A stretch of 64,000 bases of DNA from Psammoneis japonica (GCA_008632985.1 QPGO01000039.1:1-64000), one strand, 5' to 3'. Counted from the stretch's first letter, positions 1-62,700 are shown. Notes: a model not told the origin generated them from the letters alone. Numbers and translations are program-made.

Positions 1-737
1 AGAACAAGAACCAACGGAACCCACAAAAGATCAAGTTGAGTCTAAACCAACCACACATGAAAAAGGATGCTGCAGCCCATGGCCCAAAAGGTCAATCATG
101 TGAACATTGTCATGGAACATCCCACACTCCAGGAATGTCCATTTGGCACCATTCAAAAGAGCACCCAAAAAACATGCTCCAGGATGCACAAGGAGCAACA
201 AGAGACAGAGCATTGAAAGGAGCTCACAACATCTCTTTTTGAGAGAGAGAAAGAACAGCTTTCATTTGCCAATCGTTCAATGAAGGCAGCACTTCAAAAT
301 TCAGCTTTCTTCAAAGCCATTTTGTGTGCATGGCAACCACAGGTAAAAAGTGTCATCTCCTTGGTTGCTGGCTTGGCATCACAACATGGGGAATGCCCGA
401 TGCTGCATTGCACATGTGCAGTGTCTGACTGTACCCGTCTTGACTGACTTTGACACCCATGTTCCTCTCACTCCGTCCAGAGTATGGAGTGCTTGGCAAC
501 AGGAAGCAAACCTCGTCTGTTCCTTCTGACTTTCTCTAGAGCCTGGAGAGCTCGGCACCATGAGAAGTTGACAGTCACAACAAGGCGATTTGTCGGCCGC
601 AATGGACGGATATTGCGCGTTGTGATGTTCGGTTGACAGGCAAGATTTTAAAAAAAATGGCATCATGCCAACAAACAGAAGGCGCTCAAAGAAACTTCAA
701 ACGAAATAATTATCGAGCCCTACACATTACACTCGTT

Positions 738-2508
738 TCACAAGCTGTGCCCGCAGTAGAATTTTTTTCTCTGTTTCGTGTCTATGTTTTGAAAAGCGAG
801 TGCCAAAACAAAAACAACAACAACACAGAGTTTCTTCAATAGGCATCGCATTCGCCCAACTTTCCGAACATTCGGGCGCTGAATGGAACATTGATAACAA
901 CCAACACTCAAAGGAATCGTCACTAGCACTGACGGAACCACCAAGGCAAGAAAGGCCTTCCATGAAAGGCTTGGTCGAGGTACTGGTGTGCTCCATGCAA
1001 GATTGGAGTTCAAGGAGAGCACCAAAGAAATAAACATCCAATCATATGGGCTGGCATACGGAAAGGTGGCAGCCAACATGTATGCTGCGTTCAAACTGGA
1101 CGTGGCCATTGCCAATAGCGCCACAGCAAAGGCCGTATTGTACAAGCAACTTGGTTCCGAGAATTGCTCAGCACAATCAGACAGAAGAGCACTCACTAGC
1201 CGCGCTTGTAGCCCTGTATCACTTACGGAACTCGTCAACACCATCTGCCCAACAATGTTGATAACAAGTGCATAGTCAATGCGAGTCAGGATAGATGATT
1301 CACGTCCGAGTTATACCACGAATCATGCACCATCAAGAGCGCAGCAATCAAAAGGCACACAGTAAGGATATCAAATCCAAGAAAGTAGCATGCTGTCATG
1401 AGAAGAAGGGCTCGTTGATGCAGATTGCGACACTGACATGCAAAACTCAAAACGCCAGCAAAGCCATCATGGCCATGGATACTGCGGTATCGACAACTTG
1501 GAACGCTTGCAGTACTGTTGCAACAACTAAGAGTAATACAGCCAGAATAAATGAAACATGCAATGGATTCAACCTGTTGGAGTCCTGAGGAGTTTCGGTT
1601 CCGCCAACGTCAGTATCAACTTGTTCTTGACATTCTGCTGGCGTTTCAATGCAGTCTTCAATGCTAACATCCGCTTCAGTATGGTCCTTGTCACTCACAG
1701 TGCAGTCAGCTTCTTGTAAGTCGTCAGCTCCCTCCTGTCCAGATAAGCCTGCATAGGCTGTACTATTTGCTCGCTCCGCTGCTTGAGTATCGTCAGGAAA
1801 GCTTCGCTCCTGTAACCAAATTGCAAACATGTAAATTGCAAGTGCAGCCGCAGTAGGCAGCCACTTGTTGCCATAAAATTCCAGAAAGCTAAAATCGTCA
1901 TAGGCCACAGTCGCAAGCAAGAAATTAGACAAGTTTCCGGTCATGGAAAGAGTCGCTCCCAATGTCGTTCCCGCAAGAATAGCGAGTTTTTTGGAGAGAA
2001 GCTGCTGCTGACCGGGGGCGGTTTCAAAGACATATGTAACGAGCATTAAAGCTGAGTAGTCTCCCAAAACAAACGTGATGGCAAACGCCAGCAGCATAAC
2101 AATGAGACTTTGATACAGCGGCCTGGGAGTAGAACTCAGAAGAACATCCTTGACCCAAGAGTCGCCGTGTTTTTGAATGTGAGCAACAACTACAAGGTTC
2201 CCAAACATAAGTAGCAAGGGCTCGACAATAATACCACGACCCGCATCAAAATGTGGACCCTCATTCAAAAACGCCAAGACACGTCGCCAGGCAACCATAA
2301 TCATGGCTCCCATGAGCGAAGCAATGGCTGCGTATTCTTTTCTTTTCCTTTGCAAAAGACGGACTGACAACAGAGCAACAACATAGAGAATCGCGACCGA
2401 CCAGGCCCCAGCGACCGAGAACTGATCCGAAACATTAATGTGGACATAGTCTCCACCGTAAAGCGAGCGATTCGTCATTGTCATTGTCTTCTTATGGAAC
2501 TTGGGCAT
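738..2508 (-). CDS. Probable ArsB/NhaD (CitMHS)-family permease, Lsi2 silicon-efflux-transporter-like; frame broken around 1280-1450
   Basis: ORF 1447-2532 is multi-TM with LGATLSMTGNLSNFLLA (cf. the Lsi2/ArsB S..GN..N loop). The downstream frame reads ILTRIDYALVINIVGQMVLTSSVSDTG, like the Lsi2 C-terminal half (ORF 738-1244). The halves need a frameshift or intron to join. Confidence 0.55.
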
Positions 2509-2759
2509 CGGTATCAACAACACTGCAAACAATCAGCGCTCCGTCCGAAGGCCATCACGACTCACGACATCAGCTAAAATGGCGGATATGATAAATGTGA
2601 AAACCAGTCATGAAATCTTTTCAATGATGCTTGCATGCGCCGGGAGTACTGTCCTCACTATCAGTGTCAGTTTAACGTGCTGTCGATCCAAATGTTTTTG
2701 TCTATCCGTCATCTGTTTTTCACCGTTTTGTTCTCATTCTTTGAAATTCAACCTTGACA

Positions 2760-4500
2760 CCAGCTACAACAGCTGCCATCGTAACACAGCTTAGCTTGCT
2801 GTCAGACTGTCCAAAAGGATGCCTCAACTGTCAAGCTGCATTGAAGCAACCACAATGATTGGCTTGTTGTCTTTGACACAAAAGCGCCAAACAAAAGGGT
2901 GGTCAAATCGGGACAACAGCCTTCTCAACCTCAAGGAGATCAGCTGCCCAATGTGCTGGCCCCACCTGTGCATTCTGTCCCACCACAAGTGCACAAGTTG
3001 GCCAGGAGCAGCAACAAAGACAGAGAAAAAGCTGGCGTGTGAGACGGCCACACCAAGGTGACTGCTTTGAGCCTGTGGAAGAAGCCAACTTTGCTGCTTG
3101 CGGTCAGGGGGGGGGGGGGGGGACAGCTGCTGTCATGTTGTTGCAACCCAGCACCACAAATCCCCCAGTCTGACAGGTCTCAGTGGTGTCTGAGCACAAC
3201 GCTCCTGTGGCGAAGGTCCGCCACTGTCAACGTATTCCAGCCCCAGGTGATGCACAAAACGACGATCAATTTTGAACATGAATTGTGCGCCTCTCGTGCG
3301 TGGAGCATTTGCACACAAAACACTAAAAGGGAGGGTTTTTTATGGGTGTCTAGAGTGTGAACATTTAACCATTTTTTTCATTGGTGCACATGTTCTCATG
3401 GGATGTGATGCATCAAAAACTCCCTCAGTGGACTCAACGCTGATTGTGCATCAGTGCATTGCGCGCAGAGATTTGCATGCAGGTGGAAGGCATTCCAGAG
3501 AGCATCGTAGAAAAATCATTTGTTGTGACATCAGAATGACAGCAACAACTTCACTGAAAATCATTTGTTGTGTCACAACTCGTTCGTTGCAATGAAAAAC
3601 ATGTGTTGCACAAAAACAATGACGCTGCAACACCCACACAAGTCTTGTCAGTGTTGCAAAACATTTGTGTTTGGATGAATCTATGCTTTTGGCAGAGAAA
3701 GCTTGATCGCAAGTTGGGGACCATGCAAAAATTGTGCAAATGTCATTTTTGTGCACGGTTTGGTTCACGTGCAGCTGGAACACATGTCTGTCATGCAACT
3801 GTGGCTTGCAAGAATCTGGACACACGCAAATTGCAACCATGCCTCCACTTTACCAAGCAGCTCTTGCAGGGTGTCAACACCACCACCATGGGATGATGTG
3901 GCTGCTCCTGGTGATGCACTCTTCTGGCTCATTTTGACCAATGTTTTCTGAGCTCCAAGGATGCAAACTGGGCAACTGGTGCAGACCACAGCTGCAAAAG
4001 TCTTTTGTCCACCTGGCAACACAACAGGTGCACAATGGATGGAGTTGACCTGCCTGCTTGTTTCCAATGCACTCATTTCCTTTGTGACAACACAATCAGA
4101 CAAGCTTGGTCTGGTGCGCACTTTGCCAGGTCAGTGCGGTGTTTGTCTTAGAAAGAGCCAGATCTGCTTGGTTTTCATTCAACAAAGAACACTGCACATG
4201 CTGCAGCATTTTAGACCTGCACTTGTTCTTTTGCGAGGCATCAAGAAAGAAGAAAAAGACATTGAAAATGGGTCAGAGAGAGCCTGCAAAGGAAACAGCA
4301 GTGATGACATCCAAACTCAATGCTGTTTGGTGGCGTGCAGCAACCATCCTTTGCCAATGCATCAAGTGCACCAGACAAGTGACCATGCATCATTCCCTGC
4401 CAGAGAATTATGGTGTGACAAATCTGTTGCCCAAGCTCCACTCCATTTAGGCAAGTTGCGATTGCTGCGTCCAGGCTGCGGTCGAGGGCTTGTTGAGTGA
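2760..4500. repeat. Eroded repeat block (CpG- and TpA-depleted, TG/CA-rich)
   Basis: Almost no TA or CG dinucleotides. Overlapping ORFs are Cys/His-rich and nearly Tyr-free. Contains a TIR element. Confidence 0.7.
3229..3788. mobile_element. Degenerate non-autonomous TIR element (MITE-like), 4-bp TSD TGTC
   Basis: Left end aacgtattccagccccaggtgatg, right end tcacgtgcagctggaacacatgtc. TGTC at 3225-3228 and 3789-3792. The TIR resembles the other elements in the window. Confidence 0.55.
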
Positions 4501-4555
4501 TGTTGCAGCCTGCACAACAGCTCTACTGGGCTGCCTCTCTCGGCTTTTTACTAGT

Positions 4556-6150: not shown

Positions 6151-6834
6151 TATATTCGACTTCTCTCTTTCGCAAAATGCATTGAAGGTCCACAGAGGAA
6201 GCACTTGTGTTTAAAATGGATAACGCAAGCAACACAACGCCTCGTTGAAGTGCTGGAAACTGGAAGTGCAATTTTTTGTGGCTGAGTATCTGCCGAGGCT
6301 CTTTACGTCAGGCTCTTTCGAAAATCAAAGGCTCTTTTGTGTGTGTTTGTACTGGGTACGTGTCACAGACCACATTAGAGGGAAATGGACAGACGCTCCA
6401 ACCAGGAGAGCAAGCAAGCAATCGTAAGCAATAAGCAAGCTGGAAGCACTCTCTCTCCAGTTTTCTCCTCTTTGGAATGGACGGAACAGTTCTGTGTGCC
6501 AACCAGTGACGAGAAGCTCTGTTGAACTCTACAAGGCGGCACCTTTCCCTTGCCATTCATGGCTGCCCTTTGACCTTGACTGATCCATTGCACAGGGCAC
6601 CGTCGTGCCCATGTTCACCAAGTTGCAAGGCTCAATAAAGGACCAAACGCAAGCGGAGCGAGCCGTTCAAAGAACAGATCCATCATTTTTGGGTCTTCAA
6701 GAATGTTCAGAGATCACAGGTGTGTGAGGCAGTGTCACATGTTGAGAAAGCAACGCAGTCATGATATTAAATCCGATTGGTCGAACTTGCTTGCATAGAG
6801 CTATGCACGACTTTGGTCTCACCAAAGAAAACCA

Positions 6835-8669
6835 TCACGTAGTTTTTGATGACTTCAGCCCATTGTCAGATCCTTGTTCAATCTTGCTCAAGTCTGCCAC
6901 AATGTTTGGATGAGTTGATTCTACTGTTTCAACAACCGGAGACTCGCCAATAGAATTGTTTGTATTGGGGGCCATGGACGACCTGGCAAGAAAGGTGGTG
7001 GTCGCCTCTTCGGTACTTCTGGTGCGACAGGAACAGCAACGCTTGTCACGGCAATACCGTACACACCGTGGCCGTGCATAAGCGATAAAATTTGTAAAGC
7101 CTTGAATGGGAGCAACAAACATAGCAACACAAAGGAAACCGTATCGATAATAGAGACCGGCATCAATCAAGACAATTACAACCAGAATGGGCCAAGACAA
7201 GTAAAAGCACATGAGATACCAAAATCCTTGCCAAAACACCTGACGACGTATCCTTTGCGCGTTGGATGTCATGGAATATGATTCGGTTGCTCGTTGTTGA
7301 TGATACACCTTGATATAAATGTGAACAGTAATGACTGTCGCAAAGAAAATCACAATGCAAATGGGAATCACGAGGAACACAAGACGCTCGGTATCTCCAG
7401 GAATGTAACACATGACGACATCTGCGTCATATTTCGGAATGCCAGCTAGCGCTAAACCCAGACCGAGCGCTAGCGGCGGTCCAAACAGGGCCCAATTAAA
7501 GCGAACGATTCGGTTTTCCTTCCAGCCATAGGATATGACGAGGTTGTAGTAGATTGCAAGAGACAGGTTCAAGAATGGAGACGTGAAGCCAAATTGAATG
7601 AAAAAGCCCTGTGCCGTGCACGTGGCGTCGTTGCCCCGAGCACCATACACGTTGGTGTCTGCTGGCATTGGTAAAGTTGTCAAAGACCAAGCCACGGAGG
7701 CCAAGCAGTCAATACAGCTCATGGTCAAAAGTAGATAGTGTTGCGTTGTCCGTTCACTCTTGGCTTTGCTGCAGATGCTAGAAATAATATACAACGATCC
7801 CTGATATCAAAGCAAACAGAAAGCTGTAAGTTCAAAGGGCGAGTTGAACGTTCATCTCAAAATATCCAAACCACAATGCTGGAAAAGAGTAAGAGCAGAG
7901 ACGGACTTACGAAAAATGACATTGCCGCTGATATCCGGGGTAACCAAGCAAGGATAGCTTGTCGCCGATTGATTTCGGAGGAAGAACATCCACAAAAGAA
8001 GCCCGCAGCTTGATCTTGCCTACAGGAAAGTGTATCATCGTCTACCAATTGAAAGATTGCGCTCTCGACAAGTTCGCACGTGGGATTTTCATAATGCCAA
8101 TGCTTTGCATCCAACGTCAAGTCTGTAGCATATTGTGGCCTGCTCACGTTTTCTCCGTTTGTGCAAAAATGACAAGCATTCTCTCGTATCGGGCACCCAC
8201 ACAGCGGGCCAACAATTTGTGCCTCGAAACATTTTGAGTCGTTGGCCGCAATTGAATGTAAATAGGCATCAAAGATTTCGCAAGTTGGAACGATGCCGTC
8301 AAAGTTGCTTGCCAGAAAGACAAGTTGCTTGTCGAGTCGTGTCGGGATGCTGCCGTCCACGCAGAGTCGGCAAGAGTCCTCAGGTACAGGACAACCACAT
8401 AGTGTGCTAATGTTTTTACATTCTTTAGAGTCCATCTCCAGTGTTGAAGCATACGCATCAAGCATGGAACAATTCTGTACGGGTACGGGCCAAGCTAACG
8501 CGAGCTCCTTGGAGGAAAATGCAATAATTGATGAATCATCTGCTCCGCTGAGACAGAGAGTGCAAGTCTCATTGTTTGCAATGGCAAACGTGTTTAGCGC
8601 ACTTAGCACCACAAACATACGAAATAGATGCCAAGAGGTATGAGAGATGCTTGAGTTTGACTCCATCAT
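6835..8669 (-). CDS. 7TM GPCR-like protein with Cys-rich N-terminal ectodomain (2 exons)
   Basis: Signal-like N-terminus and three CxLC/FC...TCE...CGC repeats. Phase-0 intron 7801-7910 (GTAAGT...ATCAG) joins AAMSFF to GSLYIISS. 7TM motifs CTAQGFFIQ, LSLAIYY, PIQGFTNFIAYARPR. Confidence 0.85.
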
Positions 8670-9224
8670 GGTCTCACTGTAGAGGCGACGAGATACGGAG
8701 ACACACGCAATGATTTCGATGATTTTGTTGCGGCGGGGGTTGATTGAGGTTGCATCTCGGGCATGAGTCACGAGTTTGAAGTTCCATGCAGTCTCGAGCA
8801 AAAAATGACATCATACATCTCATGTTGGATGGGATGCCGGCGGGCCGCGCCATCGTCTGGCTGCAGGAGGAGCCCAGTCGATGACACCGACAAGATTTCT
8901 ACTAGGTTGTAGACTGAATGATGCAATTCAAAATCTCATCCTCATTGAATTCATGCTGGAGAGTCTGCAGGAAGCTTGTCACAAGCTGACACAAACTTGG
9001 TGAGCAACTGCCATGGTTTTCACGAAGCTGCTGCCGGCTGGCTGCTGGAGTGACTTCGCCCCCCACAAAAAAACACGATGGAACCAGTGGCAAGAAAAGC
9101 ACTCTCATCATGTGCACTTTCTGCAAAGATGCTAAAAAAAACCTGCACAATGGTGCCCCACATTCTGGTGACTGTGCACTGTGTGCTGAAACTTCTTGCA
9201 CGCGGGACATTGCAGCGCAGATTT

Positions 9225-9495
9225 GATGGAGATTGTTGCTCAAAATTTGTGCATGAACTTGGGCACTTTGGCAGCCCTCCTGACAGATCCAGGTGGAGGC
9301 ACTGCCTTGCATCAAGATGTGCTTGATGGACAGCTGCACTGAGAGCACATGTGGCTGCACATGCCGCAAATTGTCAGCCACAACAAGCTGCTGGTGCTCT
9401 TTCCTTGGTGGAGATTTTGAGCGCTCATGCATGACAGACGGGTGGCTGGCGGGACAATGGCCAAGCAAGCACAGATGCTTTGCAGCTCTGTTTTT
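9225..9495 (+). pseudogene. Eroded relic of the 3' part of the GT8-like gene at 16160-17571
   Basis: tggcgggacaatggccaagcaagcacagatgctttgcag (about 9447-9485) aligns with tggcggggcagtggccgagtaagtataggtgttttgcag (about 17372-17410). An upstream ggagattgttg anchor is also shared. Confidence 0.7.
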
Positions 9496-9499
9496 GCCT

Positions 9500-10200
9500 C
9501 CATCGGGTCATTCCCAATGTTCTGGTGACTGGGGTCCTTGCCCTGCACTCTCTGCCTCATTTGCTTCTTGGCGCAGCAATCATCTGGGAACTTGGCAAAT
9601 GTGACAGTCTTGTTCTCTTTGTCTTCTTCACTTTCTTGTTGTGGTCATGCAGCTTGGCCTTGTGCCAGCACTCCAGCTCTTTTGGTTTGGCAGCCAGCCA
9701 TGTCTTCATTGGGCACATCACCATCGTGGGCAAACCTCTTGCATTTCATGTCTTCTGATGACCTTGCCAAATGCATTCCTTGCTCATGTTCCTTCTGCTT
9801 GCAATGGATGATTTTTTCCTTGATGTCTTCACATGTTCTTGCATTGCAAGCATTGCTGTTCAGTGATGAAAGGCAAAGCTTCATCTCATGCTGAAAGCTC
9901 CTCTTTTGGACAGTTTTCTTCTTGTTGCATGAAAACTTGTGGCCTTTGTCACCTCTGCCTTGGTTGCGGCCTTGGCCTCTGCCACTTGTTCTGCCTCTTT
10001 GTTTTCTGCCACACATGTGTTGTGCAGAGTTTTGATGTTGAGTGACTTTGTGAAGGTCAGTGTCTGTGAGTGCTGAGCACAGTGCCAGTGACTCCTTTGG
10101 GTGAACATTGAACCAGCAAGTCAAGGTCACCAAAAGGGAATCCTGTGAGCAGGCTTCCTGTGCTGCTTGTTGCACTTACCTTGGTTTCTTGTGGCAGCTG
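9500..10200 (-). mobile_element. Possible eroded Ty1/copia (CoDi-like) gag fragment
   Basis: RGRTSGRGQGRNQGRG followed by EMKL...TCEDIKEKIIHCKQKEHEQGMHLARSSEDM resembles diatom copia gag N-termini. Recognised from memory only. Confidence 0.4.
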
Positions 10201-10949
10201 TCAGAGGTGCACAAATTGTCTGTTGTTGTTTGCACATGTGCACTCAGACACACTCAGCATGTGCATGATGTCAAACTTGCCACCACAACATTCATCAATT
10301 CCCTGGAGATGAGACAGGCAGTGCAGACATGGTGATGCAAATGGTCTCAGCTGGCTCTCTACAATGCAGAGACATTGTCTGCAGACTGTCAAAAATGTGG
10401 GTGGCGCGGTGTGCAAGTCATTTCTGTGGGACACATTTCTCGCTGATTGAACAACCTGATTGGGACATGTCAGTGCAGTGGAGTTTGATGTGTCCACAAT
10501 GTGAAGGGGGGTTGCAACAACATTGGCATCAAAGAGACAATGATTGCAGATGCCGCTCCTTCAGCGCACATGGTGCTGCCTCCACTGATTGAGCCTTGGT
10601 CATTGTGTCAATGTGGGAAGGCACTGACACGCCTGCCACGGGAGAACAAAATGCCAACACAATCATTTTGATGGTTTCTGACATCACACCAGCTGTGGAG
10701 TGAGTCCTGTTTGGCGCAAGTGAGGACTGAGCAGCACACTGTGCACTGGCACACTGAGCCTGACCATCCGAATGCATGGCACTCATCAAAAACTTGACAA
10801 ATGACATTTTTGCTGCCATCCTGTCCTTTCGTGGGGAAAGGCAATGACGCACCAAATGCTGCCTGGGAAATTCATGCCTGCCGTGTTGAGTTCACACACC
10901 ATGATGAGCTTGTGCTCGTGTGATTTTTGCCATCATTTTGGTGGCTTGT

Positions 10950-12960
10950 GACACATCATGGACTTCAAAGTGACCAAGGAGTCCTGCTCCTGTCACCTTT
11001 GCTGGAGTGATTCTGAACTTGTCCGCACTGCTGGAAGGGATGACAAAAAGCTTGTCTCAATCATTGAAGTGAGGAACCCAGCAGCCACTGTGCACTTTGC
11101 CAAATCAGAGAAGCAGTGCAGCTTCAGTGAGGGGGCTTTTGACTTGGCCACCTGCCAAACAACAGATGATGTAATTCCTTGACATCAGCTGTTCCCTCCA
11201 CCATGACATCATCTCCTCCTTTCACAATTCTGATGACATGACATCTGCCTTGATTCCGACGGGTTCCAGTCCTAGGTGGGACTTTTTGTGACATTGGGCC
11301 CGTAGAATTCTACGTGCGAACTCCTTAGTAAAATTATTAAGCAATGGATATATGAATGATCGCCAACAGAAAAAGAGGCAATTTTGCGAACGTATCTCCT
11401 CCTCCACACTTGAAGTACATTCTTTACAGTATGCCCGGGTATATTCTTTAGACATTAAAGAATATACCCAGCGCATTTTTATTGACATAAGTGCAGATAA
11501 CAGAAAGCCTTCGGCTTCGCAAAACAGGCAGTGTGGAACAGTTTTTTATAATAGAACACGTAGAAATGTACGTGCGAAACATACGACGGATGATAAAAAA
11601 TAATTATGTCACAGTTCAGTAGTACGAGGTCCCACCTAGAGCTGGAACACGTCTTCCAATCTTTGGGCTTGCACAACTTTGGACTGCTGATTTCAGAAGG
11701 GAAGATGTTTTGCATCGCATTGCAAAATTCTTCTGGGACTTCACATTCATTCAGTCTCACCAGCTCACCAGCACAGTCAAATTCCAGAACCGGTTTCTCA
11801 AAAACAATTCTGCCTGCCATCAGACACAATCTTTTGTGAAGCATCAGAGTGCTTGTCTCACAACAAGAAAAGCAGTCTGCCTCAATCACCCACCCAAGAA
11901 AGGGCGGGTTCTTGTTCTTTCTGGCTGCATGGCAGCAAAGGGTCTTTGTTCCATTCACACCACAAGTTTCAACAAGCAGCTGCACAGCTCCCTCACTGAC
12001 AGTGGCATGTGTTGTGAAACCATTTTCTTCCATCACAAAGCTGTGCAGGTGTGTTTTTGCTGCAGGTGACCTTGTCCTGCTAGCAAATGGAAGTCAAGGA
12101 TGTCTCCAACTTTTGCCAAATCATTTGTGCTGTCCCCAGTCACTCTTTTGGTTTGATCTTTTGTGAAACACACCATCCAACATGCCAACTCACCAGCAAA
12201 GAAATGTTTTTGAGCGACGATTGTCTGATGGTGGATGCAAGTTTCAAGGTCCCAGCTCAATGTCTTTTTCAGGTGCTTGTCAGCTGTCTTTCATTGTTTC
12301 CCCCACTCTTTCTCAAAAACATCAGAGTTTTCAACAAACAGGGGGGATGCAGATCTGTCTTCATTCACAAACACTGCAAGCAATTGGTCTGAGGTCCATG
12401 AGTGTTGAGCAAAACAACTGTGGAGCCCCTTCTCTTGCATGTTTTTGAGCTCGTGTGATGCAACCGCTTGATCTTGTTTGAGACCACAAGGAATCCTGAC
12501 TGATTCATCCCTGCTTTCCACCAAATCTCAGCTGCTCCAAAGCCTCATTGCAGCCATCCCAAGTGACTCCATTGAGCACAAGTGCATCTGCATTGGTGCT
12601 TTTAATGGCATTGTCCAAGTCTTTTCTCTTGACAACTTGGTCCTCTTGGCAACCTGTCTGATCTGCAAAGACTTGCACTTTGTTGAACCCATTCTGGTCA
12701 AAATGGAACCACACAATTTGCTTCCCTTGTTTTGCCAAACACAGCAGTCATTTTGTGCCACAATGTTGATGACTTTCCTGCACCCAGCAGACCATGGATT
12801 AATCCCAGCACACTTGCCTTGGAAACTTGGTCAACATGATTGAGCAGTTCACAACACTGGCACAAAACAATGGAGCAATTGCTTTCATTTGTGTGGCCTG
12901 GTGCTGTCGTGTTTGGGAATGGGATGGACACAAAATCTTCATCTGACCTCTCTTTCACAG
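10950..12960 (-). pseudogene. Crinkler/CR-type NTPase + restriction-endonuclease-fold gene, eroded and MITE-disrupted
   Basis: Motifs in order: IHGLLGAGKSSTLW (P-loop), IVWFH, LVLNGV, KHFFAG..ACWM, NPPFLGWVIEAD, KPKDW|NQGRCHVI (WNQGGYD, split by the MITE), WQVAKSKAPSLKLHCF. Multiple stops and frameshifts. Confidence 0.7.
11258..11653 (+). mobile_element. Young MITE (396 bp), about 25-bp TIRs, 4-bp TSD TTCC
   Basis: gacgggttccagtcctaggtgggac ... gtcccacctagagctggaacacgtc. TTCC at 11254-11257 and 11654-11657. Retains TA and CG, unlike its flanks. Confidence 0.92.
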
Positions 12961-30182: not shown

Positions 30183-30209
30183 TTGATTGAAGAATCAAGA
30201 AGTGCCATC

Positions 30210-48604: not shown

Positions 48605-51026
48605 ATGAAAGTGCTTCACGTTGCGCTTTTCGCGCTCATGGCAGCCCCGCTGCAGGGTGCTGAGACAGCTGGCCTTCGTGGAACGGGTCCGCAAAACAAC
48701 AGTCGCTTGCTTGCGCAGCACTTTGACAGTGTGAGCGTGGCAGGCTCGATCCATGGCTGTGTCGTAAACAACAAGCATGTTCGCTTTGTCGATAGTGCTG
48801 AGGGTTGCAACGCCTACGAACACTACGTGCACTTGAGTGCTTCTGATCTTAGTGGAGAAATCAGTCAGCCTCAAGAGAAGACAGGCATCCGTGGAATCGC
48901 TATGCAGTACGCTCGCCTTTTCACTAGTCGCCGTCATCTTGGACAGGCGTCACCCTCGGTATCGCATTCAGGTCCCTCGGAATCGCATTCAGGTTCGGGA
49001 CCAGTGAGTTTACGGGAGATGTTGTTCGTGTCTGTATGACGAGTGAGAAGTACATTCGCATGGTCATGTCTTCAAGCGCGTGCAGCTCTTCGGAAACCTA
49101 CATCAGCTGGGAAGTAGACGGAGAGACAGGCGACGACGGAAAGGATGGTAAAGACGGAAAGGATGGTAAAGACGGGAAGGACGGCCTTGACGGAAGGATG
49201 GTAAAGACGGAAAGAAGGGACCAAGAGGAGATGCCGGCCGTGATGGAAAGGACGGCAAAGATGGAAGGGATGGTATCGATGGAAAGGATGGGAAAAATGG
49301 AAGGGACGGCCGAAACGGCAGAGACGGAAGGGACGGCCGAGACGGCAGGAACGGAATGGACGGCCGAGACGGCTCAAGTGGCTCGAACGGTGACCACGGA
49401 GATGACGGCAGAGACGGCAGGCACGGATTCAATGGAAGGGACGGAAGAAGCGGAAGAGACGGCGTGGATGGCGCGGATGGAAAGGATGGCACGGACGGCA
49501 AGGATGGCAAAGATGGCAAGGACGGAACGGATGGTAAGGACGCCACCGATGGAAAAGACGGAAAAGACGGTACAGACGGCAAGGACGGCAAGGACGGCCA
49601 AGACGGCCAGAACGGCAAGGATGGAACGGACGGCAAAGATGGTGTCGACGGAAAGGACGGCCAGGATGGCCAGCACGGCCAGGATGGCAAGGACGGCTCC
49701 GACGGAAAGGACGGTACCGACGGAAAGGACGGCAAGGACGGAAAGGACGGTTCAGACGGAAAGGATGGTACTGATGGCCAACATGGCCAGGATGGCCAGC
49801 ACGGCAAGGATGGATCGGACGGAACGGATGGCAAAGACGGCACCGACGGAAAGGACGGCGTTGACGGAAAGGACGGTAAAGACGGTACCGATGGCAAGGA
49901 CGGCAAGGACGGTCAGGATGGCCAGCACGGCCAGGACGGCCAGGATGGCCAGCACGGCCAGGACGGTCAGCATGGTAAGGATGGTACAGACGGAAAGGAC
50001 GGTACCGACGGAAAGGACGGCACCGATGGCCAGCACGGCCAGGATGGCCAGCACGGCAAGGACGGAACGGATGGCAAAGATGGCGTCGACGGAAAGGATG
50101 GCACTGACGGTAAGGACGGCAAAGATGGAACGGATGGTAAGGATGGACAGGACGGACAGAATGGTCAGCACGGCCAAGATGGCCAGCATGGCCAGGATGG
50201 CAAGGACGCCACCGACGGAAAGGACGGTAAAGACGGAAAGGACGGTTCCGACGGAACAGATGGTAAAGACGGAAAGGACGGTACCGATGGTGAGGACGGC
50301 CAGGATGGTCAGCACGGCAAAGACGGAAAGGACGGCACGGATGGCAAAGATGGCGTCGATGGAAAAGATGGTGTTGATGGAAAGGACGGCAAAGATGGCA
50401 GTGACGGCACCGACGGAAAGGACGGTACCGATGGCCAGCACGGCAAGGATGGCAGTGATGGTACCGACGGCAAGGACGGCCAAGACGGCCAGAACGGCAA
50501 GGACGGAACGGATGGCAAAGATGGCGTCGACGGCAAGGACGGTCAGGACGGTCAGCACGGCCAGGACGGTCAGCATGGCAAGGACGGCTCCGATGGAAAG
50601 GATGGTACCGACGGAAAGGACGGTGCAGATGGAGAGGACGGTGCAGATGGAAAGGACGGTGTCGACGGCAAGGACGGCAAGGATGGCAAGGACGGCAAGG
50701 ATGGTAAGGACGGCAAGGATGGCGTTGACGGCACACATGGCGTTGACGGCAAAGATGGCGTTGATGGAAAGGACGGCAAGGATGGCGAGGACGGCAAGGA
50801 TGGTGAGGACGGCAAGGATGGCAAGGACGGCAAGGATGGCAAGGATGGCAAGGACGGATCGGATGGTAAAGATGGCACCGACGGAAAGGATGGAAAGCAT
50901 GGCAAAGATGGCGTCGACGGCATGGACGGTGAAGATGGTGTCGACGGAAAGGACGCCGTCGCTATGTCTCCCAGCGAGGATTCGCCTGAAGAATCGCCCA
51001 AGTTCTCGCCCAGTCATTCACGTTAG
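48605..51026 (+). CDS. Secreted collagen-like protein with about 200 Gly-X-Y triplets (GKD/GTD/GQD/GQH/GVD)
   Basis: Signal peptide MKVLHVALFALMAAPLQG. G-X-Y run about 49117-50955 with one -1 frameshift near 49194. The link between the N-terminal ORF and the repeat region (intron or frameshift) is unresolved. Confidence 0.8.
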
Positions 51027-51329
51027 GGACTCAGTGTTCATTTTATAGGAAGAAAAGCTGCTGCGAGGATTCAGGAAGACTTCTAGCTATCTTAGAAATA
51101 CAGTAGCAACAGAATTACATGCACGCTCTACCCGTTTTTTCCCGTAGTGTCATGCAGTGTTCGTGTTCGCTCTCTCGTGGATTCGCGGGAGTAGCAGGTA
51201 AAATTGTCGTCGCCTTTAAGCATGAGAGCAGCACATGCACAAGGTTCCCCGAGCCAAGTGTGTCAACGCTGTACATCAGTGTACCGGTAAGCTGCATCTG
51301 TGATGGCATAAGAAATGTTGCACAAATCT

Positions 51330-53450
51330 CTGCCCAAGGATGAGTGGACCTGCTTTGGTTTCAGTCAACTGATTGCTTGACACGCAAGCAACAACAATGA
51401 GAAAATGGGTGCACGTGAACGAAACAGCCACACCACCCCAAGCTGCCATTGTGGGCAGTTTTTGCAAGCAGCTCAAACTGCACCAATTCCGAGCTTGAAT
51501 TGCAAACGGAGCAGAGTGTTGGCAACTGCACTGATGCAAATGGAGCCGAGTGTTGGCAACTGTGCTGATGCACCTGCGAAGCCCTGCTTTCATCATGAAC
51601 AGGGCGGCAGTCTGGAATCTGGAAAATGGCCTGGAAAATGGTTTGAGTCAATGGAGAGCTGGAGCATTCTCTGTCACACACATGTGCGATTTCTTTTTTT
51701 TTGCTGTTCTTCAGCACTTGTCCTTGTTGTTTTTATCTAGCAGCCTTTCAACCCAGCTGTCAAGCCACTGGGATCTCACAACCTTGTGTCTTGTTTCTGG
51801 CTCTGTGCTTTGCTTCAGCACCAAGTGATGTCTGCCACCACACTTGAGACTGAAGATGCGGTGTCATCTCTGGGGGTGACATCCATTGCCCCAAGGCTTT
51901 GGCTCAAGGCCACCTGCATGGGTGGTTTTGCTGCGGATGCCATTGTGAAATCAACGCAGCAGCAACTTGGCAATCCTTTTTGCTCACTCCCAGTTGTGAG
52001 ATGAGCAGGAAAATTGACGGGGTTTCAGAGGGCGATGTTGGCTGACAGATTGCTGAGACACACCACACACGGCAGCTGGGGTGCAATTCACAGAAGCAAA
52101 AATGTGCATCGTGTGAACTTGCATCCTGGAATTGCACAGACAAATTTTGCTTGAGCACGAGAGTTTGAAAATGCCCCTCTGCAAAAAACCATCTGCCTCT
52201 GAGAGTTTGACGTTGTCCTCAAGATGACTCCAGGGCTTCTGTTGCTGTGCCAAAACATTTCTTGTCAGCAAATGTCCCAGCATTTTGCTGCAAAAGTTGT
52301 TGGTTGCCAGAGTGTCGCTGCAGCCAAGAAAGCATGCTTGCTGGATCAACATGGCTGCAGTCAACAAGCACCCAACTGAGTGTTGTGAAGCATGGATGAT
52401 TTGTGTCTCGTGGAAGAAATGTGACAAATGAAGCCACTGCAGTGTCGCCAAGTGCCTTGCCACCAAGGAAAGCTGCCAATGCCGCTCCATGTCGCCCCCC
52501 ATTGCACCACTGTGGAAGCATTTTCTGCCCATTTAAAGCTGCTGGACTTGCGCACAACTTTGATGACCAAGTTTGCAAAAACTGGCAATTGACAATCATC
52601 TCCAGCTCATTTGTTCTGCCCAAAGCATTCAGAAGCCAGCGCAACTCAGAGCTGCTGTCCAACCATGTCTCATGTGCACACCAGCAAACAACATTGTGGT
52701 GCACAAGGAGCAAAGCAAGCACAAATTACAACAAGAAACACACCAGCACTAGAGTGAGTGCATGACAGAATGCCGAAGGGCAATGATGACAACAATGTGA
52801 AAGACACCCTGAGCACCAGTGACTGTGACAACATGAGCACCAGCAAAAGAGAATGAGAGGCAGATCTCAGAGAGATCTGCTGGTCTGTCCAAGAGGTCTG
52901 GTCATCATCCATGTGTGCTCTGTCAATCACACGACAGGCAGACTGACACTGCATCGACAAAACAACAATTCTTCTGAAACAAAGACAGCGCCATTGCAAT
53001 GTGACAACAACAAAAAACACATGGCTTGATGTCACTGCTCACAACTTCATCTTCGCTCTTTCTCAATCAACTCATCAACCACTTGCTTGGCATTCAATGT
53101 CAACAAATTGATCTCAAGCAGAACATGCCGCAGAAAAGAAAAATGCACAAATGCCAAAGTGTTCAACAGAGGCCACACCACAGCCCTCATCACCTCAGCA
53201 CATTGCGGCCAAGCTTTGTCTGATGGGTCATTCATTGTTGCCTTTGGATGCATCTCAAAATGACAATTGTGGAAGTGGCGCAAGGTGTTTTGTGTCAGTT
53301 TTCTGCAATCAATGCACACGAAATTTCAGGAAAAAAAACGCATGTCTCAAAGGGCAGGTCGGCATTTGTCAGCTGCAATTTTTTAGGGGTAAAAAAGGGC
53401 GAACCCAAAATTACATCCCTTCGCCACGAGCACGACGGGTCTGACTGATG
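51330..53450. repeat. Eroded repeat block
   Basis: TA/CG depletion; content not identifiable. Confidence 0.6.
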
Positions 53451-57159: not shown

Positions 57160-57399
57160 AATATACTGTATCTTCCGTCGTTCCTGGCTAGTTGAATGGC
57201 ATCCTTAAACGCAGACGATGCTTTTGAAGAGATGTCTTTGAACAGAAGGGCTTGAAACGTCAGATAGATGAGATGATGATGAGTTGATGATGCGACGACA
57301 GTGCGTTCTTGTTGAGAGTGATAATGCGGGCACCGGGCGGGGCACAGACGACCTGAGCCAGGGGGTGAGCGCGTGCATGCTGTTCATTCTCAGAGATGG

Positions 57400-58620
57400 A
57401 ATGATTGGTTGTGACAGCTGTGAAACAATGAGCAAGGAATGACACAGAAAGGAACAAAGGGGTGCCAGACAATGGGTCACTGTGCTTGTTGATGCCACTG
57501 CACACAAGTGAACAAGCCAGCCAGCTGCAGGTGCTCACATCTTTGTTCTCTTGTTGTCATCAGCAGCAGAGACAAAACACAGAGGAATCATGTCAGCAAA
57601 ACAAGCTTGTTGTGGCAAGCCAGATTCAAGGCAAAGCTGCTGAGACACACAAGAAAATGAAGGAATTGTCAAGAAAGTCTGCCACAGCTGCGACAGATGA
57701 CAGCAAGAAGCGCGCATGTTTTGGCCTTGTGTGGGTGCAAGCAACAAAGCATTAAGCTGAGATTCACATGCCTTGAGAAACAAAGTTTGGTTTTTTGTGG
57801 TGATGCCTGGCAGTGGGGGTCAAGCCTTGAGAGCAATGAGCACAGAGGAGGTGCAGAAAACAAGGTGCGCGAGCTGACAGCCACTGTCTGGCACAGTGTG
57901 TGCTCTGTGCTGGCAAAGCAGTGAGACCATGCAGGCCCCACATGCACCATGCTGTGTGGGTGCTGCACTGGCATTGACGTGCTGCATGACAGAAGCATGG
58001 GGGGTTTCCATGTGGCACAATGACTTGGGCATTTCAGACAAAAACCAAGGAAGCAACCTTGTGCATGGATGCAAGTGTGTTTTGATTGGCCATCAATGCA
58101 AGCATGAAACTTTGGTGCACTTGCAATCCAAAATGCAAGCCAATGAGAGAGAACTCGCACAATTCCTTCTCACGTTGCTCCATTTTTGTGGAGACAAGCC
58201 AGCACCCGACAGTCTCTGCACATGGCTTTTGAGAACCTCCTGCTGTTTTTGTCACCTGATGGCACACAATGCACTTGTGAACTCTGGTTCTTGGTGGCTC
58301 ATGGCTGCTTGCTTTTTGTTCTGTGAAAATCACACCTCTGCTGCTGCAAAGCCAAACATGATGAAAGACTCACCTTTTCGGCAAACGACAGAGGCCTCGA
58401 GGTGGCGGCCTGTTGTCATGCCACAGGAGGGCACACAGCTTGCAACAACCCAGAATTGAAAGGTTTTTGAACACATTTATTGGCATGTGCAATTGTGTCT
58501 TTGTCCTCGGCACTGCATTTTGCAACATGAGAATTTGGAACGAATCATCGAGAATCCAACTGTGCCTGTGTGTCGTCAGTTGATGATGCATTGCGCATTA
58601 CGTTTTCATTGCGCACTGCG
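57400..58620. repeat. Eroded repeat block
   Basis: TA/CG depletion. Confidence 0.6.
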
Positions 58621-58668: not shown

Positions 58669-59817
58669 ATGTCTTCGTCAGTCCATAGAACAAAAAGACC
58701 CACCGTCTACCATGTGCTGGATGTGTGGGCGATTCCGCCAGAAGTCTACAAAATTGCAGACAAGCAAGAGCGTGCTCGCGTTATTCACAGATTGATTCGA
58801 TCTTCTACCACCAAACCCCTCGGATTGGACAAGGAGATTGCTCCCATATCATTTGCGGATCATGCCATGGTCTTATTCGGGTTGTTTTTATGCATGGGAG
58901 GTCCTCTTTTATGGATATACTGCAGCATGTATTGGCTACTTTTGGGATCACCGTCGTTTTCGTTCCTGTTGCGATTTGCCCACGTTGCCGCTGCGTACTG
59001 TGTATTGGCATTTCATCCCTTACCATCAAGAGATTCGGGCTTTATACACGACTTTATGACCAGCCGATTCACGCTTGCTCTCTACAAGTACTTCACCTAT
59101 CGATTTGTCTGGACAGATGATGCCCTAGAACATATTGTCGAATACATCAAAACGAAGGAACAATGTTTTATCGGCGCAGGTCCTCCTCATGGAGTGCTTC
59201 CCTTCGCCAACCTTCTCAGTGTTCCCGCCATAAACACGGTGCTAGGAGTCGACTTTGTGGGGACTCCCGCTCCCATTGTGTTTTCAACGCCCTTTTTACG
59301 CTACATGACCATGTATCCGTTGGTCAGTGTCGACAAAAAGTCCATGCTTTCCGTCTTGCAAACAGAGCACAAAAATGTTGGCGTCGTCCCGGATGGCATT
59401 GCTGGGATATTCCGCCAATCCCGTGATCGAGAGGTTGTAGCCTTGGCCGATCGCATGGGAATTGCCAAGTTGGCTTGTTCGTATGAAAACATTGCGATAA
59501 TGCCAGCGTACTCGTTCAACAACACGGGTGTCTTCTCGTCGTGGTGGGATCCCTGGCACGTGATGGAACGGATCAGTCGCAAACTCAAGGCATCCATCTT
59601 TTTCTATTGGGGACGGCTTTACATGCCCATTCCTCATCGTGTTCCCATCGCCATGGTGTTTGGAGATCTAGTCGTGCCGCCGGAAACAACAACGAAACCG
59701 CCCACACAGGAAGAAATCGCAGCCGTTCACAAGCAACTGCTGGACTCGATTCGTGATTGCTATGAGAATTTCAAAGAGTCATTAGGGTTTAAAGATAAGG
59801 AGTTGCAATTTGTTTAG
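58669..59817 (+). CDS. DGAT2/MGAT-family acyltransferase
   Basis: Two N-terminal TMs, YKYF, PPHGVLP (HPHG variant), VVPDGIAGIF, RMGIAKLA, PAYSF, GR..PIP..P...VFG. Confidence 0.9.
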   Translation: MSSSVHRTKRPTVYHVLDVWAIPPEVYKIADKQERARVIHRLIRSSTTKPLGLDKEIAPISFADHAMVLFGLFLCMGGPLLWIYCSMYWLLLGSPSFSFLLRFAHVAAAYCVLAFHPLPSRDSGFIHDFMTSRFTLALYKYFTYRFVWTDDALEHIVEYIKTKEQCFIGAGPPHGVLPFANLLSVPAINTVLGVDFVGTPAPIVFSTPFLRYMTMYPLVSVDKKSMLSVLQTEHKNVGVVPDGIAGIFRQSRDREVVALADRMGIAKLACSYENIAIMPAYSFNNTGVFSSWWDPWHVMERISRKLKASIFFYWGRLYMPIPHRVPIAMVFGDLVVPPETTTKPPTQEEIAAVHKQLLDSIRDCYENFKESLGFKDKELQFV

Positions 59818-60059
59818 CGCATCAAAACTTGCGGTTCAGATAGGGATCAGCTTTTCCTTCGACTCAAAGCTAATCGAAGGTACTGTATCGCACCGCATTC
59901 GCTAGCCCTTCTTTGTTTTTCAGATTCAAGGTCATCCTCCATGATCACTGTAATAGACAGTAAAAGTTTCTTCTAGATTATAAGCCTTTGTTTTACACCT
60001 ATTGGAGCATCATATTGGTGATTTCAGTAGAGTTGCGCTCTCTCAAGGAAAAAAAAAAA

Positions 60060-62700
60060 ACGAGGAACAATGCAGAAAGTGCATGTCTGTGAGGACAAAG
60101 TGATGCATTCCATGAACATGAAATCTCCGCCACTAGCCATTGCCACATTGTCAGGAAGAAATCACAATAGCCAAAGGGCAAAATTCAATGATTTTCTTCT
60201 GTCATTCAGCAGGGACCAACCAACGAGTGTCCTTCTTACATGTCAGCTGCCAGTGTCAACATGAGTTGGTGGCATGAAAATGATGTCACCATTTTCTCTC
60301 CCACTTCCAATGAAAAACCCTTGCAGTCTCATCAATGCACTGTTCCAACTGGACTTCCTTTGGAAGGTGCTGCAGGCTCTCACCACCAGGTTCTTCCACT
60401 GTCATAAAAAAAATGCTCATCCAACCTGTCCATTTTCTGAAAATGCCATGCCAAAATGCTGGAAGCCTTCTTGGTGTCTTGAATTTCTTGTGTGGTGAGA
60501 TCTGACCAAGAATGTGCCACACTTTGCTCATCAACATGCTCCAAAGCCATTGCAGCAGCAGGCAATGCAGCTCTTGTTGGTGCTGCTACACATGCCACTG
60601 GTGCAACAGGGAAAGGATGATTGTCGTTGACACTTTGAAATGACTGGTTTTTGGTGCCACATTTGTTGCATCCCTCAGCATCATCGACACAGCCAAAGTC
60701 TGCTTCCAAATTTATCTTTCACAAACAAAAGACAAATCAGCTTGAAATCAAACTCCCCTCAGGTCATCTTGTGCACTCGGTGATGGCACAATTTCCGTGT
60801 GATTCTGGTGTTTTGCTGGCAACCATGTGATCACTTGACAGAGGAGGTCCCCAACACAGAGGCACAGCCACAGGTGAGGATGCATGTGGGAGACTGACCA
60901 GTTTTTGTAGGAGCCTGTGAGTCAGGGGGCTGATGCGACAGAGACCAACAAAATGCGCTGACATGGCTCTCTGTCAAGTGATCCTGCACTGAGAACATGT
61001 TTTTCCTGCAAGACCAGTGGAAGATGTCATTTTTCCCTGCAAGACCAGTGGAAGATGTCATTGTCAATGGCACTGGTGCTCTTTGATTGGGTGTCATTTC
61101 ATGGGTCTGCTTCTTCATGTGTGCATTGCAGATCTGCTGCATTCATTTTTAGTTGGGCATCTCTGTGTGTTTTTTCACATTTGTGCATTCATTTTGCCAA
61201 CCTGCACAGTCTTGCAGCAATCAATTGTGATTGAACTCTGCAACGTCACATGCCAGTGACATGCACAATGTTGTTGCCAACAGCATGTCTGGGAACCACC
61301 ACTGGACATTGACAGCTTTTCTTGAGCTTCAATGCCAGACTGCGTGCAGATTGCTGTGCTTTCAAAATGACCCTCAGCTTTCAAAACAACATGCACATCA
61401 CTCACTCTGGCTGGGAATGTGATGGCTGGCTCCTGGAATGCTGGTGTGTTGCTGCTTGGCTCTGCATCAGGAATCAGCCAAATTTGTCAAAGTCAGATGT
61501 GATGGTTCTGATGATTGGAGTGAGACAAATTTCAAATTTTGGCTCCCCTCCTGTGTGCCAAGTTCCCGTGCAGCTTCTGCTCAACTGATCATCTGGCAAT
61601 TGCAACTCCAGAGTTTCTGCTGTGCACAATTGGGCTGGCAGTTTGGCAGCTGCACAAGTTGAAGGATCAAGGAAAACATGGAGGATGATCTCATTTCCAT
61701 GGAAAAAGAGCACGTGCTCTCCTCTCTTTGCAATGCTTCATGAAGCTTGTTGTGTGACGCGTGCTTTGGTCTGACATGCCCCAGCTCCAGCTCCAAACCT
61801 GGCAGTCTGGCGCATTTGTTTGAACTTGAGAACAAAGTGTGGGTGTGCCAAACCTGGCAGTCTGGTGCATTTGTTTGGACTTGAGAACAAAGTGTGGATG
61901 TGTTTGATGGGTGATTTGGGTCTGGTGGTTGAAGTGGCAAAACCAACCACTGCTGTCAATGATTTTTGCAACAGCGATGATGACAGCAACAGCAATGAAA
62001 AACCAACAAAGTTGTTTGTGATGCAGGTGCAAAAGACAGCAAATGAAAAGTTTTGTTGACAATGATGACAAAGTGCTGTTTTCATGCATGCTGTCACAGC
62101 TCTGCACAGGCAACATGGAGAAGCCAAGAGCAACCGCTCACTGTCAGGCATCAGAAATGACACCTTGCAGTCACTGCCTTCAAAGCAACAAACTCCAAAT
62201 GCTGTTGACAACACTCCAATGAACAGCTGAGTGCTGGAAAAATTCAAAAGACTGCTTTTGCCATTTTCCAAGATAAAATGTGTGAGTTTTCTGAAATGGA
62301 CCCTGGTGCTGACTGCCAGCCACTGTCTCAGTGTTGACCTCACAGTGTGCTCTCATCAAGACTTTGGGAGCAGCATGAGAGCCTTTCAACAGCTCAAGGA
62401 CAACAACCAACACAGATGCTAAGAACAAATTACAGCTGCAAATGGCTGGATTTAATTAAAGAAGCACTGGAGCCAGCCGTTGGCTTGGAATGTCACAATT
62501 TTTCGTTCTAAGGAGGAGGCGCTCATGAACAACATTGCATTGACCTTGCCCGTCAAGTCAGTGAAGAATGTGCCCACCCTTGTTCACTCAAAGACAGACA
62601 GCAACAGGGGAGATGGTACAAAGACAAAAACAAGATTTCCAACACCACCTCACAATGACAAGAATGGCCACAAATCTCATTGAGTCACCATGCAGACAAG
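60060..62700. repeat. Eroded repeat block with short internal tandem duplications
   Basis: TA/CG depletion. About 31-bp duplication near 61000-61062 and about 55-bp duplication near 61793-61903. Confidence 0.6.

Follow-up and report, generated by a model that had tools for sequence, protein, structure and literature searches.

TA- and CG-erased blocks between the genes of Psammoneis japonica, and two regionally targeted mutational processes that may account for them

Erased and normal blocks along the locus

The DNA analysed here (64,000 nt of Psammoneis japonica, QPGO01000039.1:1-64000; this whole stretch is the window) carries genes of ordinary composition separated by DNA from which the dinucleotides TA and CG have been depleted, a state that we call erased. 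Over the whole stretch there are 1327 TA (observed/expected ratio, o/e, 0.31) and 2323 CG (o/e 0.62), with TG at 1.53 and CA at 1.47. A two-state hidden Markov model (HMM) on dinucleotide transitions divided it into 13 erased blocks, totalling 29,781 bp, that alternate with 13 normal blocks totalling 34,219 bp (Table 1). Pooled erased DNA retains 85 TA (o/e 0.04) and has CG at 0.27, TG at 1.89, CA at 1.74 and a GC content of 0.50, against TA 0.52, CG 0.95, TG and CA 1.23-1.24 and GC 0.47 in pooled normal DNA. The erased blocks make up nearly half of the stretch, are sharply bounded and lie in the spaces between genes: all normal blocks except three short ones hold a long open reading frame (ORF), most of them with a Pfam family.

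Table 1. Positions and composition of the features discussed (MITE, miniature inverted-repeat transposable element; R/Y, purine/pyrimidine code; TM, transmembrane)
Feature	Position	Strand	Composition	Basis or remarks
Erased block	1-431	n/a	TA o/e 0.07, CG 0.14	HMM
Erased block	2794-4524		TA o/e 0.10, CG 0.32	HMM; between CitMHS-like and CobW-like genes
Live copy A, weakly 7tm_2-like gene	6494-8913	-	normal TA/CG	reference for mutation direction
Erased block	8914-11252			HMM; first 270 bp homologous to flank of duplicate B
Erased paralogue of normal 17187-17432, DNA downstream of GT8 gene	9227-9514			R/Y search, alignment
Unmutated MITE island	11253-11653 (401 bp)		TA o/e 0.98	inside erased DNA
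Erased block	11654-15663			HMM; carries duplicate B of 7TM-like gene and its upstream flank
Erased duplicate B of 7TM-like gene, with upstream region	13299-15235			DNA-level alignment
Erased block	23373-25967			HMM; with inverted-repeat arms
Intermediate block	25968-27250		TA o/e 0.19, CG 0.96	
Erased block	27251-27584			HMM
Erased block	30180-31295			HMM
Erased block	32536-33930			HMM; holds erased MITE copy
Erased MITE copy	33124-33530			R/Y search
Erased block	36359-39313			HMM; part of GC-rich stretch
GC-rich stretch	36359-40500		TA-free, CG kept at o/e 0.5-0.9	MITE copies inside
Erased MITE copy	38296-38691	-		R/Y search
Erased MITE copy	39089-39531	+		R/Y search
Scored normal	39314-39473			HMM; within GC-rich stretch
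Erased block	39474-46837			HMM
Largest fully erased stretch	40501-46837		TA o/e 0.0-0.1, CG 0.03-0.6	no Pfam domain in six frames
Erased block	51317-53319			HMM
Erased block	57375-58529			HMM
Erased block	60068-62420			HMM; between two DAGAT copies
Erased stretches covered by contigs of read run X1	8001-9868, 10213-11285, 11626-14461, 14436-15310, 23956-25869			k-mer contigs
Pfam families in normal blocks				CitMHS, CobW, weak 7tm_2, GT8, AMP-binding/PP-binding, Tim17, AAA_16, DAGAT

A preliminary description of this DNA had claimed a two-state mosaic with sharp edges, and our blocks agree with its list to within about 30-280 bp. Among 128 non-overlapping 500-bp sub-windows the TA o/e is bimodal, as that description had proposed it should be, a mixture of two Gaussians (means 0.05 and 0.49) being preferred over a single one by the Bayesian information criterion (-71.9 against 17.6). 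Two or fewer TA are found in 42 of the 128 sub-windows, compared with a maximum of 3 in 100 simulations of a homogeneous Markov chain. Depletion of TA and of CG also coincides (Spearman 0.76 between the two o/e ratios; 2x2 table 47/13/3/65, Fisher 2e-19), although only one-sidedly, since the TA-free DNA at 36359-40500 retains CG. The 25 state edges have 2-lnL (log-likelihood) support intervals 17-301 bp wide (median 82), which is the limit of sharpness that the density of informative dinucleotides permits. Two of the blocks first listed needed revision: the one at 8900-15830 is erased but contains the 401-bp normal island and ends at 15663 (support 15627-15688) instead of 15830, and the one at 23330-27620 is mostly erased but includes the intermediate block, which is TA-poor yet CG-normal.

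The 18 edges with a long ORF on their normal side lie -143 to 2199 bp from the end of that ORF (median about 260), and in 13 of the 18 cases the distance is 112-497 bp. Non-coding DNA next to genes is normal, with a TA o/e of 0.7-0.9 at 17751-18500 and 0.64-0.71 at 47001-47750, and the erased state is therefore not merely that of non-coding DNA. A flood of tyrosine-poor, cysteine- and histidine-rich false ORFs had been ascribed to the loss of TAA and TAG, and this explanation is confirmed by stop density, ORF density and residue composition. TAA and TAG together occur 2.1 times per kb in erased and 15.5 times per kb in normal DNA, ORFs of at least 70 amino acids 8.2 against 4.9 times per kb, and within these ORFs tyrosine makes up 0.13% against 2.21% of residues, cysteine 6.3% against 3.5% and histidine 5.4% against 3.6%. 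Erasure accounts both for these tyrosine-free, cysteine- and histidine-rich ORFs and for the failure of domain searches on such DNA.

The erased sequence is also present in the reads. Three DNA runs of one sample were compared over 8001-28000 using k-mer contigs of run X1, which may be the assembly's own source, so that the comparison tests read accuracy and not independent biological replication. Over erased DNA these contigs have word depths of 55-66 and 0-8 differing letters each, while the genic contig at 17373-22690 (5,318 bp) has a depth of 58.8 and no differences. Accurate reads thus carry the erased sequence at the single-copy depth that the genic contig also has, and an artefact of the consensus at modified bases is excluded. 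Among the 23 differences from run X1 listed within 8914-15663, 16 are TA or CG against TG/CA (6 TA, 10 CG) and 7 are other; the TA that segregate are mostly in resistant contexts (TTAA, GTAA, CTAG). The two erased contigs at 23956-25869 likewise have zero differences. Such differences carry no direction of change, and the genic comparison is confounded by selection on genes; they hint, and only hint, that erasure is possibly still ongoing.

Direction, context and relative rate of the changes

Pairs with one normal and one erased member give the direction of change. They were found by self-comparison and searched again after recoding the stretch in R/Y, because every change of this kind is a transition. 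The recoded search also brought up additional copies of a 400-bp element. The main pair, 6810-7932 and 13561-14699, is 79% identical in nucleotides and 93.5% identical in R/Y code, and differs by 184 transitions and 44 transversions. Among the 47 TA sites of its normal copy, 21 have become CA, 17 TG and 9 something else, and none is kept; its 52 CG sites have become CA (24), TG (20) or other (3), with 5 kept. Across five normal/erased alignments, 140 TA sites gave 57 CA, 50 TG and 28 other with 5 kept, and 122 CG sites gave 44 TG, 42 CA and 9 other with 27 kept. Both strands are thus altered about equally, and we found no strand-coordinated runs of CA or TG outcomes (P>0.05 in 10 of 11 runs tests; the remaining one, for CG, gave P=0.048). 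In the main pair, aligned as 6828-7931 against 13577-14698, double transitions (TG to CA or CA to TG) occur at 16 of 178 sites. The recoding itself recovers, before BLAST, homology that hypermutation has masked, and offers a practical route to annotating genomes of this type.

Loss of CG is nested inside loss of TA. Thirteen of the 128 sub-windows are TA-poor but keep CG, chiefly at 26001-27500 and 37501-40500, whereas only three are of the opposite kind, and all three straddle an edge. CpG methylation alone is therefore unable to define the target; a chromatin or methylation domain, as proposed earlier, may be the determinant. In order of retention, the erased MITE copies keep 3 of 25 TA and 12 of 18 CG, 2 of 32 TA and 8 of 19 CG and, in the oldest-looking copy, 0 of 28 TA and 1 of 14 CG; logarithms of these small counts would put the per-site loss of TA at about 3-5 times the rate for CG.

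The two losses also differ in their dependence on neighbouring bases. TA sites flanked by purines on both sides gave 23 CA and 11 TG, and those flanked by pyrimidines on both sides 3 CA and 12 TG (Fisher 0.004), whereas CG decay in the same alignments had no flank effect (p=1). In a competition model that treats each TA as a contest between its two adenines, the relative rates for T-A-N, with A the mutated base, were 2.9 for C, 1.8 for T, 1 for A and 0.7 for G (likelihood-ratio test, p=0.009), and pyrimidine beat purine by 35:14. The mutated adenine prefers a 3' pyrimidine (T-A-Y), and the CG process has no such preference. Among the TA sites that survive, the ratio of erased to normal counts is 0.30 for TTAA (16 against 54) and 0.22 for CTAA (23 against 104), and the sensitive contexts ATAT (0 against 93), GTAC (1 against 108) and ATAC (2 against 183) are nearly absent. 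Survivors have a 5' T in 52% and a 3' A in 47% of cases, whereas around the TG and CA of this DNA the figures are 28% and 31%; survivors are therefore not simply new TA derived from TG or CA. The flank-independent change of CG to TG or CA on both strands agrees with CpG decay driven by 5-methylcytosine (5mC), and this G:C to A:T loss may be read as a second, separable process.

Because TA is palindromic, an adenine before a pyrimidine is also a thymine after a purine, and the chemistry is not readable from the sequence. This would leave room for a TET/JBP-type dioxygenase with the same regional targeting, a single enzyme class that oxidises 5-methylpyrimidines before a purine and so serves both TA and CG: the T of R-T-A would be converted to 5-hydroxymethyluracil or 5-formyluracil, mispair with G and give T to C, and the 5mC of CpG would be oxidised too. 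5-Formyluracil is mutagenic, and the excess of TG-to-CA flips would suit a T to C change at TpG with CpG decay afterwards. We nevertheless regard a single dioxygenase as unlikely, since a flank effect at TA with none at CG suggests two processes and the two losses are separable in the 13 sub-windows described above; two processes are what we prefer.

What is erased, and what could trigger it

Earlier reading of this DNA had found unrelated sequence classes all affected, and this holds for MITEs and for duplicates of host genes. Its gypsy, Penelope-like and non-long-terminal-repeat (non-LTR) labels were not reproduced: Pfam searches gave no reverse-transcriptase, integrase or transposase domain in any of the 243 stop-to-stop ORFs of at least 70 amino acids in the erased blocks, and six-frame read-through (X at stops) of the two largest erased blocks and of 25801-27401 gave no transposable element (TE) domain. 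The sole Pfam matches in these searches, FAM76, HNH_5 and Ilm1, were weak, at chance level and under cut-offs.

Two inverted-repeat arms of about 200 bp (23325-23526 and 24999-25205) are 82% identical in R/Y code; standing at the left end of the block 23373-25967, they probably belong to a decayed foldback or terminal-inverted-repeat element whose end matches the state edge. The intermediate block is a repeat with a summed read depth of about 8,000-9,000 and no Pfam domain in six frames. It could represent a young family that one process has reached and the other not yet, or the descendants of a partly erased master copy.

The gene pair bears most directly on the trigger. Relative to live copy A, duplicate B, which includes intron-like as well as upstream DNA, no longer has any of the 48 aligned TA and has lost 57 of 62 CG, while copy A is normal in TA throughout, outside ORFs too; the preliminary observation that the live paralogue of G-protein-coupled-receptor type keeps its TA and CG is borne out. 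Homology between the two spans positions 8608-9184 of copy A (score 329.5, whereas 30 shuffles did not exceed 39.5), and the edge at 8913 lies within it, 112 bp upstream of the ORF. Since the homology crosses this edge, the edge is neither the end of the duplication nor an insertion boundary. Upstream of 8913 both copies are erased, with discordant TG/CA at 9 of 43 sites (3 of 33 in the normal part of the homology) and with CG in one copy against TG/CA in the other at 8 sites. The discordant sites suggest, without proving it, that the flanks of copies A and B were erased independently after the duplication, and the 8 sites with CG in only one copy point the same way.

A second pair serves as a control against duplication-triggered mutation. 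Segments of a diacylglycerol acyltransferase (DAGAT) gene at 59238-59713 (+) and 63525-64000 lie 4.3 kb apart with 97.3% identity along 476 bp or more, and both are normal even though an erased block intervenes; 4 of their 13 differences are TA against TG/CA. This is a recent partial tandem duplication, whose second copy runs past the end of the stretch. The MITE island is also intact. Its element is 368 bp long (11272-11639) and ends in inverted 11-base words (11272-11282 and 11629-11639), outside which there may be a TA duplication; the three erased MITE copies of Table 1 are decayed copies of it. Reads sum to a depth of 27,000-35,000 over the island, several hundred times the value of about 60 in the flanks; summed depth is not copy number, but the family is clearly abundant and mostly unmutated.

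These observations bear on whether erasure resembles repeat-induced point mutation (RIP). The RIP of Neurospora and other fungi is triggered by duplicates of at least about 400 bp and at least 80% identity and converts C to T at CpA or another CpN in both copies, creating TpA and AT-rich DNA; it acts premeiotically through a methyltransferase of the RID/DIM-2 type. A RIP-like process here would have recognised duplicates by pairing and mutated them over the duplicated length, the sequences being unique now through divergence. Several erased stretches are indeed duplicates (13299-15235, the three MITE copies and 9227-9514), repeats are inactivated as RIP does, and the unmutated MITE, at 368 bp, is near the Neurospora minimum. 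The dense transitions, which kill repeats and leave sharply bounded blocks of skewed dinucleotides beside normal genes, are RIP-like as well. RIP nevertheless fails on every tested feature, namely direction, copy symmetry and duplication trigger. TpA is destroyed and not made, and GC is 0.50 in erased against 0.47 in normal DNA, with no rise in AT; one member of the gene pair is affected while the other is normal even beyond its ORFs; the linked DAGAT duplicates, near-identical, are both untouched; a MITE family of very high summed depth is intact; and erasure of copy A begins inside the homologous segment and not at its end. A homology trigger should have struck all of these and is therefore disfavoured, and we consider a RIP-like origin very unlikely. 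The claim that targeting follows a domain and not RIP-like pairing accordingly stands as far as pairing is concerned, which appears effectively excluded as the trigger.

Sequences could instead have been edited before they were inserted, with element transcripts or cDNA modified by an ADAR- or APOBEC-like enzyme and the edges representing insertion boundaries. ADAR hyperedits repeat double-stranded RNA and has a 3' G preference. Some edges do match element ends (the MITE island and the inverted-repeat arm at 23325), and the neighbour preference of ADAR, as cited in the text of a preprint on the chlorarachniophyte Bigelowiella natans (Mettrop et al., bioRxiv 10.64898/2026.01.13.699255), is for A to G after U. 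The substrate here, however, is chromosomal DNA that includes DNA transposons (MITEs) and a DNA-level gene duplicate with its upstream region, so that passage through RNA or cDNA is ruled out as a general route, and ADAR-type editing, needing an RNA intermediate, would fail on such DNA-only targets. The 3' G preference is not seen, the strands are about equal (57 CA, 50 TG) and outcomes do not cluster by strand, no insertion boundary lies at the 8913 edge, and retroelement domains were not found in erased ORFs or in the six-frame read-through, all of which make editing before integration exceedingly improbable. We give almost no credence to an absence of targeted mutation, whether through artefact at modified bases, foreign DNA or a genome-wide bias that selected sites escape: a change of CG to TG/CA can be imitated by consensus errors of long reads where sites are methylated, and some differences from the reads do fall at CG, but the erased sequence recurs in k-mer contigs of about 60x that differ from it by 0-8 letters each, paralogue alignments show host sequence converted site by site, and non-coding DNA on the gene side retains TA and CG.

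Two further coding regions lie in normal DNA. At 49036-51048 (+) there is a long ORF of 9-, 18- and 126-bp tandem repeats (units of the type GAC GGC AAG), with Gly at every third codon in one frame, GC of 0.6, a strongly purine-rich + strand and no Pfam hit; it looks like a gene for a collagen-like repeat protein. We considered the GC-rich stretch at 36359-40500 as an erased copy of this gene and rejected the idea, as there was no BLASTP match, no array detected by Tandem Repeats Finder (TRF) and no 9-bp periodicity (lag-9 autocorrelation 0.04-0.09 against 0.50), and the R/Y similarity is ascribed to purine/pyrimidine skew. At 18171-22917 (-) lies a large gene with AMP-binding, DIP2-like AMP and phosphopantetheine-binding domains (resembling non-ribosomal peptide synthetases or acyl-activating enzymes), divided into two long ORFs, probably by an intron. 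The best database hit of the CobW-like protein is 58% identical, and its hits from named organisms, at 49-53%, include diatoms, a raphidophyte, a bolidophyte, a labyrinthulid and a green alga; this fits an ochrophyte-like alga and does not single out diatoms. A search for metagenome relatives via the same protein returned three loci, two shorter than 2 kb and one 25% identical, which were unsuitable for comparing composition.

A regional mutator and its known relatives

We consider it moderately probable (about 0.6) that this mosaic is the product of two mutational processes confined to gene-free stretches and targeted by region rather than by sequence homology. The first and faster would convert TpA to TpG or CpA (A:T to G:C) on either strand, favouring adenine before a pyrimidine (5'-T-A-Y-3', with A the mutated base), with R-T-A-Y the most sensitive. 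The second and slower would be ordinary decay of CpG to TpG or CpA, as with deamination of 5mC. Together they would drive all pyrimidine-purine steps to TG or CA, with GC near 0.5. Everything in a silent region would be rewritten, including MITE copies, duplicated host genes with their flanks and unclassifiable spacer, while transcription units and 100-500 bp on each side of them would be spared, and a recent insertion would stay intact until the process has had time to act. We infer that chromatin decides which DNA is spared or targeted and that an enzyme carries out the TpA step; the chemistry of that step would most likely be adenine deamination by a TadA/ADAT2-like deaminase.

Several observations weigh against this interpretation. 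The silence of the chromatin is read only from the gene-free context and from CpG decay, itself an indirect proxy for methylation. An intact MITE within an erased block means that location alone does not suffice at any one time: the element arrived after the erasure took place, or else the process acts in episodes. The edges of the island and the edge at 23372 match element termini, so that element-wise targeting is possible for some blocks, and silencing that starts on elements and spreads over some hundreds of bases explains the data no worse than domains alone. Support for erasure of the copy A flank after duplication is weak, the contrast of 9/43 with 3/33 not being significant, and the differences between the stretch and the reads may be alleles or assembly errors. 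Finally, TG-to-CA flips are more frequent than one would roughly expect if background transitions went by way of TA or CG, and may reflect low-level T to C at TpG in erased DNA.

Each half of the mosaic has a known counterpart. Methylated transposons lose CpG through deamination of 5mC, and diatom TEs reportedly carry DNA methylation and repressive histone marks; the CG changes here share with such decay their outcome (TG or CA), the involvement of both strands, the absence of flank or strand bias and the setting in gene-free repeat DNA. CpG decay covers only the CG half, however, whose loss proceeds more slowly than that of TA and is nested inside it. As regards the TA half, the natural site of TadA and ADAT2 is U33-A34 followed by C35 in tRNA-Arg, and early TadA-derived base editors have a similar preference. 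A to G with an obligatory 5' T or U, and the T-A-N rates of 2.9 for C and 1.8 for T, resemble this U-A-C context; the same rates fit modification of the thymine in R-T-A equally well, and the enzyme is a candidate only.

The closest likeness is with B. natans, in which TpA-restricted hypermutation of integrated nucleocytoplasmic large DNA virus (NCLDV) and virophage DNA has been described (Mettrop et al., bioRxiv 10.64898/2026.01.13.699255). According to the text of that preprint, nearly every de novo mutation there is A to G or T to C, and all of them fall at TpA. They arise at about 6e-7 per site per generation, 100-1000 times the background rate, and are confined to two inserts, one of a virophage and one of an NCLDV, the latter single-copy and transcriptionally silent. 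The genome contains 124 clusters of windows poor in TpA and rich in CpA plus TpG, in regions enriched for transposon-like, unannotatable sequence, and the authors propose an adenine deaminase with an ADAT2-like candidate, its activity inferred from the lines to be episodic (10.64898/2026.01.13.699255). Set beside what that text reports, the TA half of our mosaic is the B. natans signature in another supergroup, at saturation. Nearly all mutations there turn TpA into TpG or CpA, and 107 of 140 TA have become CA or TG here, with 5 kept; discrete regions of large contrast there correspond to the bimodal TA and the 25 edges of 17-301 bp here.

The differences are as clear. B. natans is a rhizarian, whereas the organism studied here is a stramenopile-like alga; TA o/e is 0.04 in our erased DNA, compared with a rho of 0.45 in the NCLDV region; and de novo mutation was measured there, whereas here an end-state is read from sequence. 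The targets in B. natans are foreign or mobile and silent; here MITE copies are affected and host-gene duplicates too, with no TE or viral protein domain found in the erased ORFs or the six-frame read-through, and the spaces between genes are tiled. CpG decay runs alongside, 86 of 122 CG having become TG or CA, so that an excess of G:C to A:T, which B. natans lacks, is present. As to the independence of repeats seen in B. natans, our erased blocks have single-copy depth today, but copy number may have been different when they were mutated. The text of the preprint makes no mention of CpG, trinucleotide, flanking or diatom, though its supplements may contain data on flank context; relative to that text, the T-A-Y preference and the nesting of TA and CG loss go further. 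New here are the extended motif, the way in which the TA and CG processes are nested and differ in rate, and the geometry of the edges. A search of full-text literature found no description of the TA-erasure pattern in diatoms or other stramenopiles, and only the B. natans work was relevant.

A locally aimed mutator of A:T to G:C at TpA has so far been described only in that one 2026 chlorarachniophyte preprint, and a saturated end-state in a stramenopile-like alga suggests that the process is widespread and old. The present stretch supplies parameters that can be tested elsewhere: the T-A-Y (equivalently R-T-A) motif, a process about 3-5 times as fast as CpG decay, edges 100-500 bp from genes, and independence of duplication. 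Much more tentatively, and as a possibility that we rather doubt, Rhizaria and stramenopiles (members of the SAR group of stramenopiles, alveolates and Rhizaria) might share a heterochromatin-coupled DNA-editing defence, in which a T-A-Y adenine deaminase or a thymine oxidase would be recruited to silent regions, rewrite unique host DNA too, halt one to two nucleosomes from active genes and act several-fold faster than CpG decay. If true, this would be an analogue of RIP in function, homology-independent and opposite in direction, and a major, so far unrecognised shaper of the composition of algal genomes.

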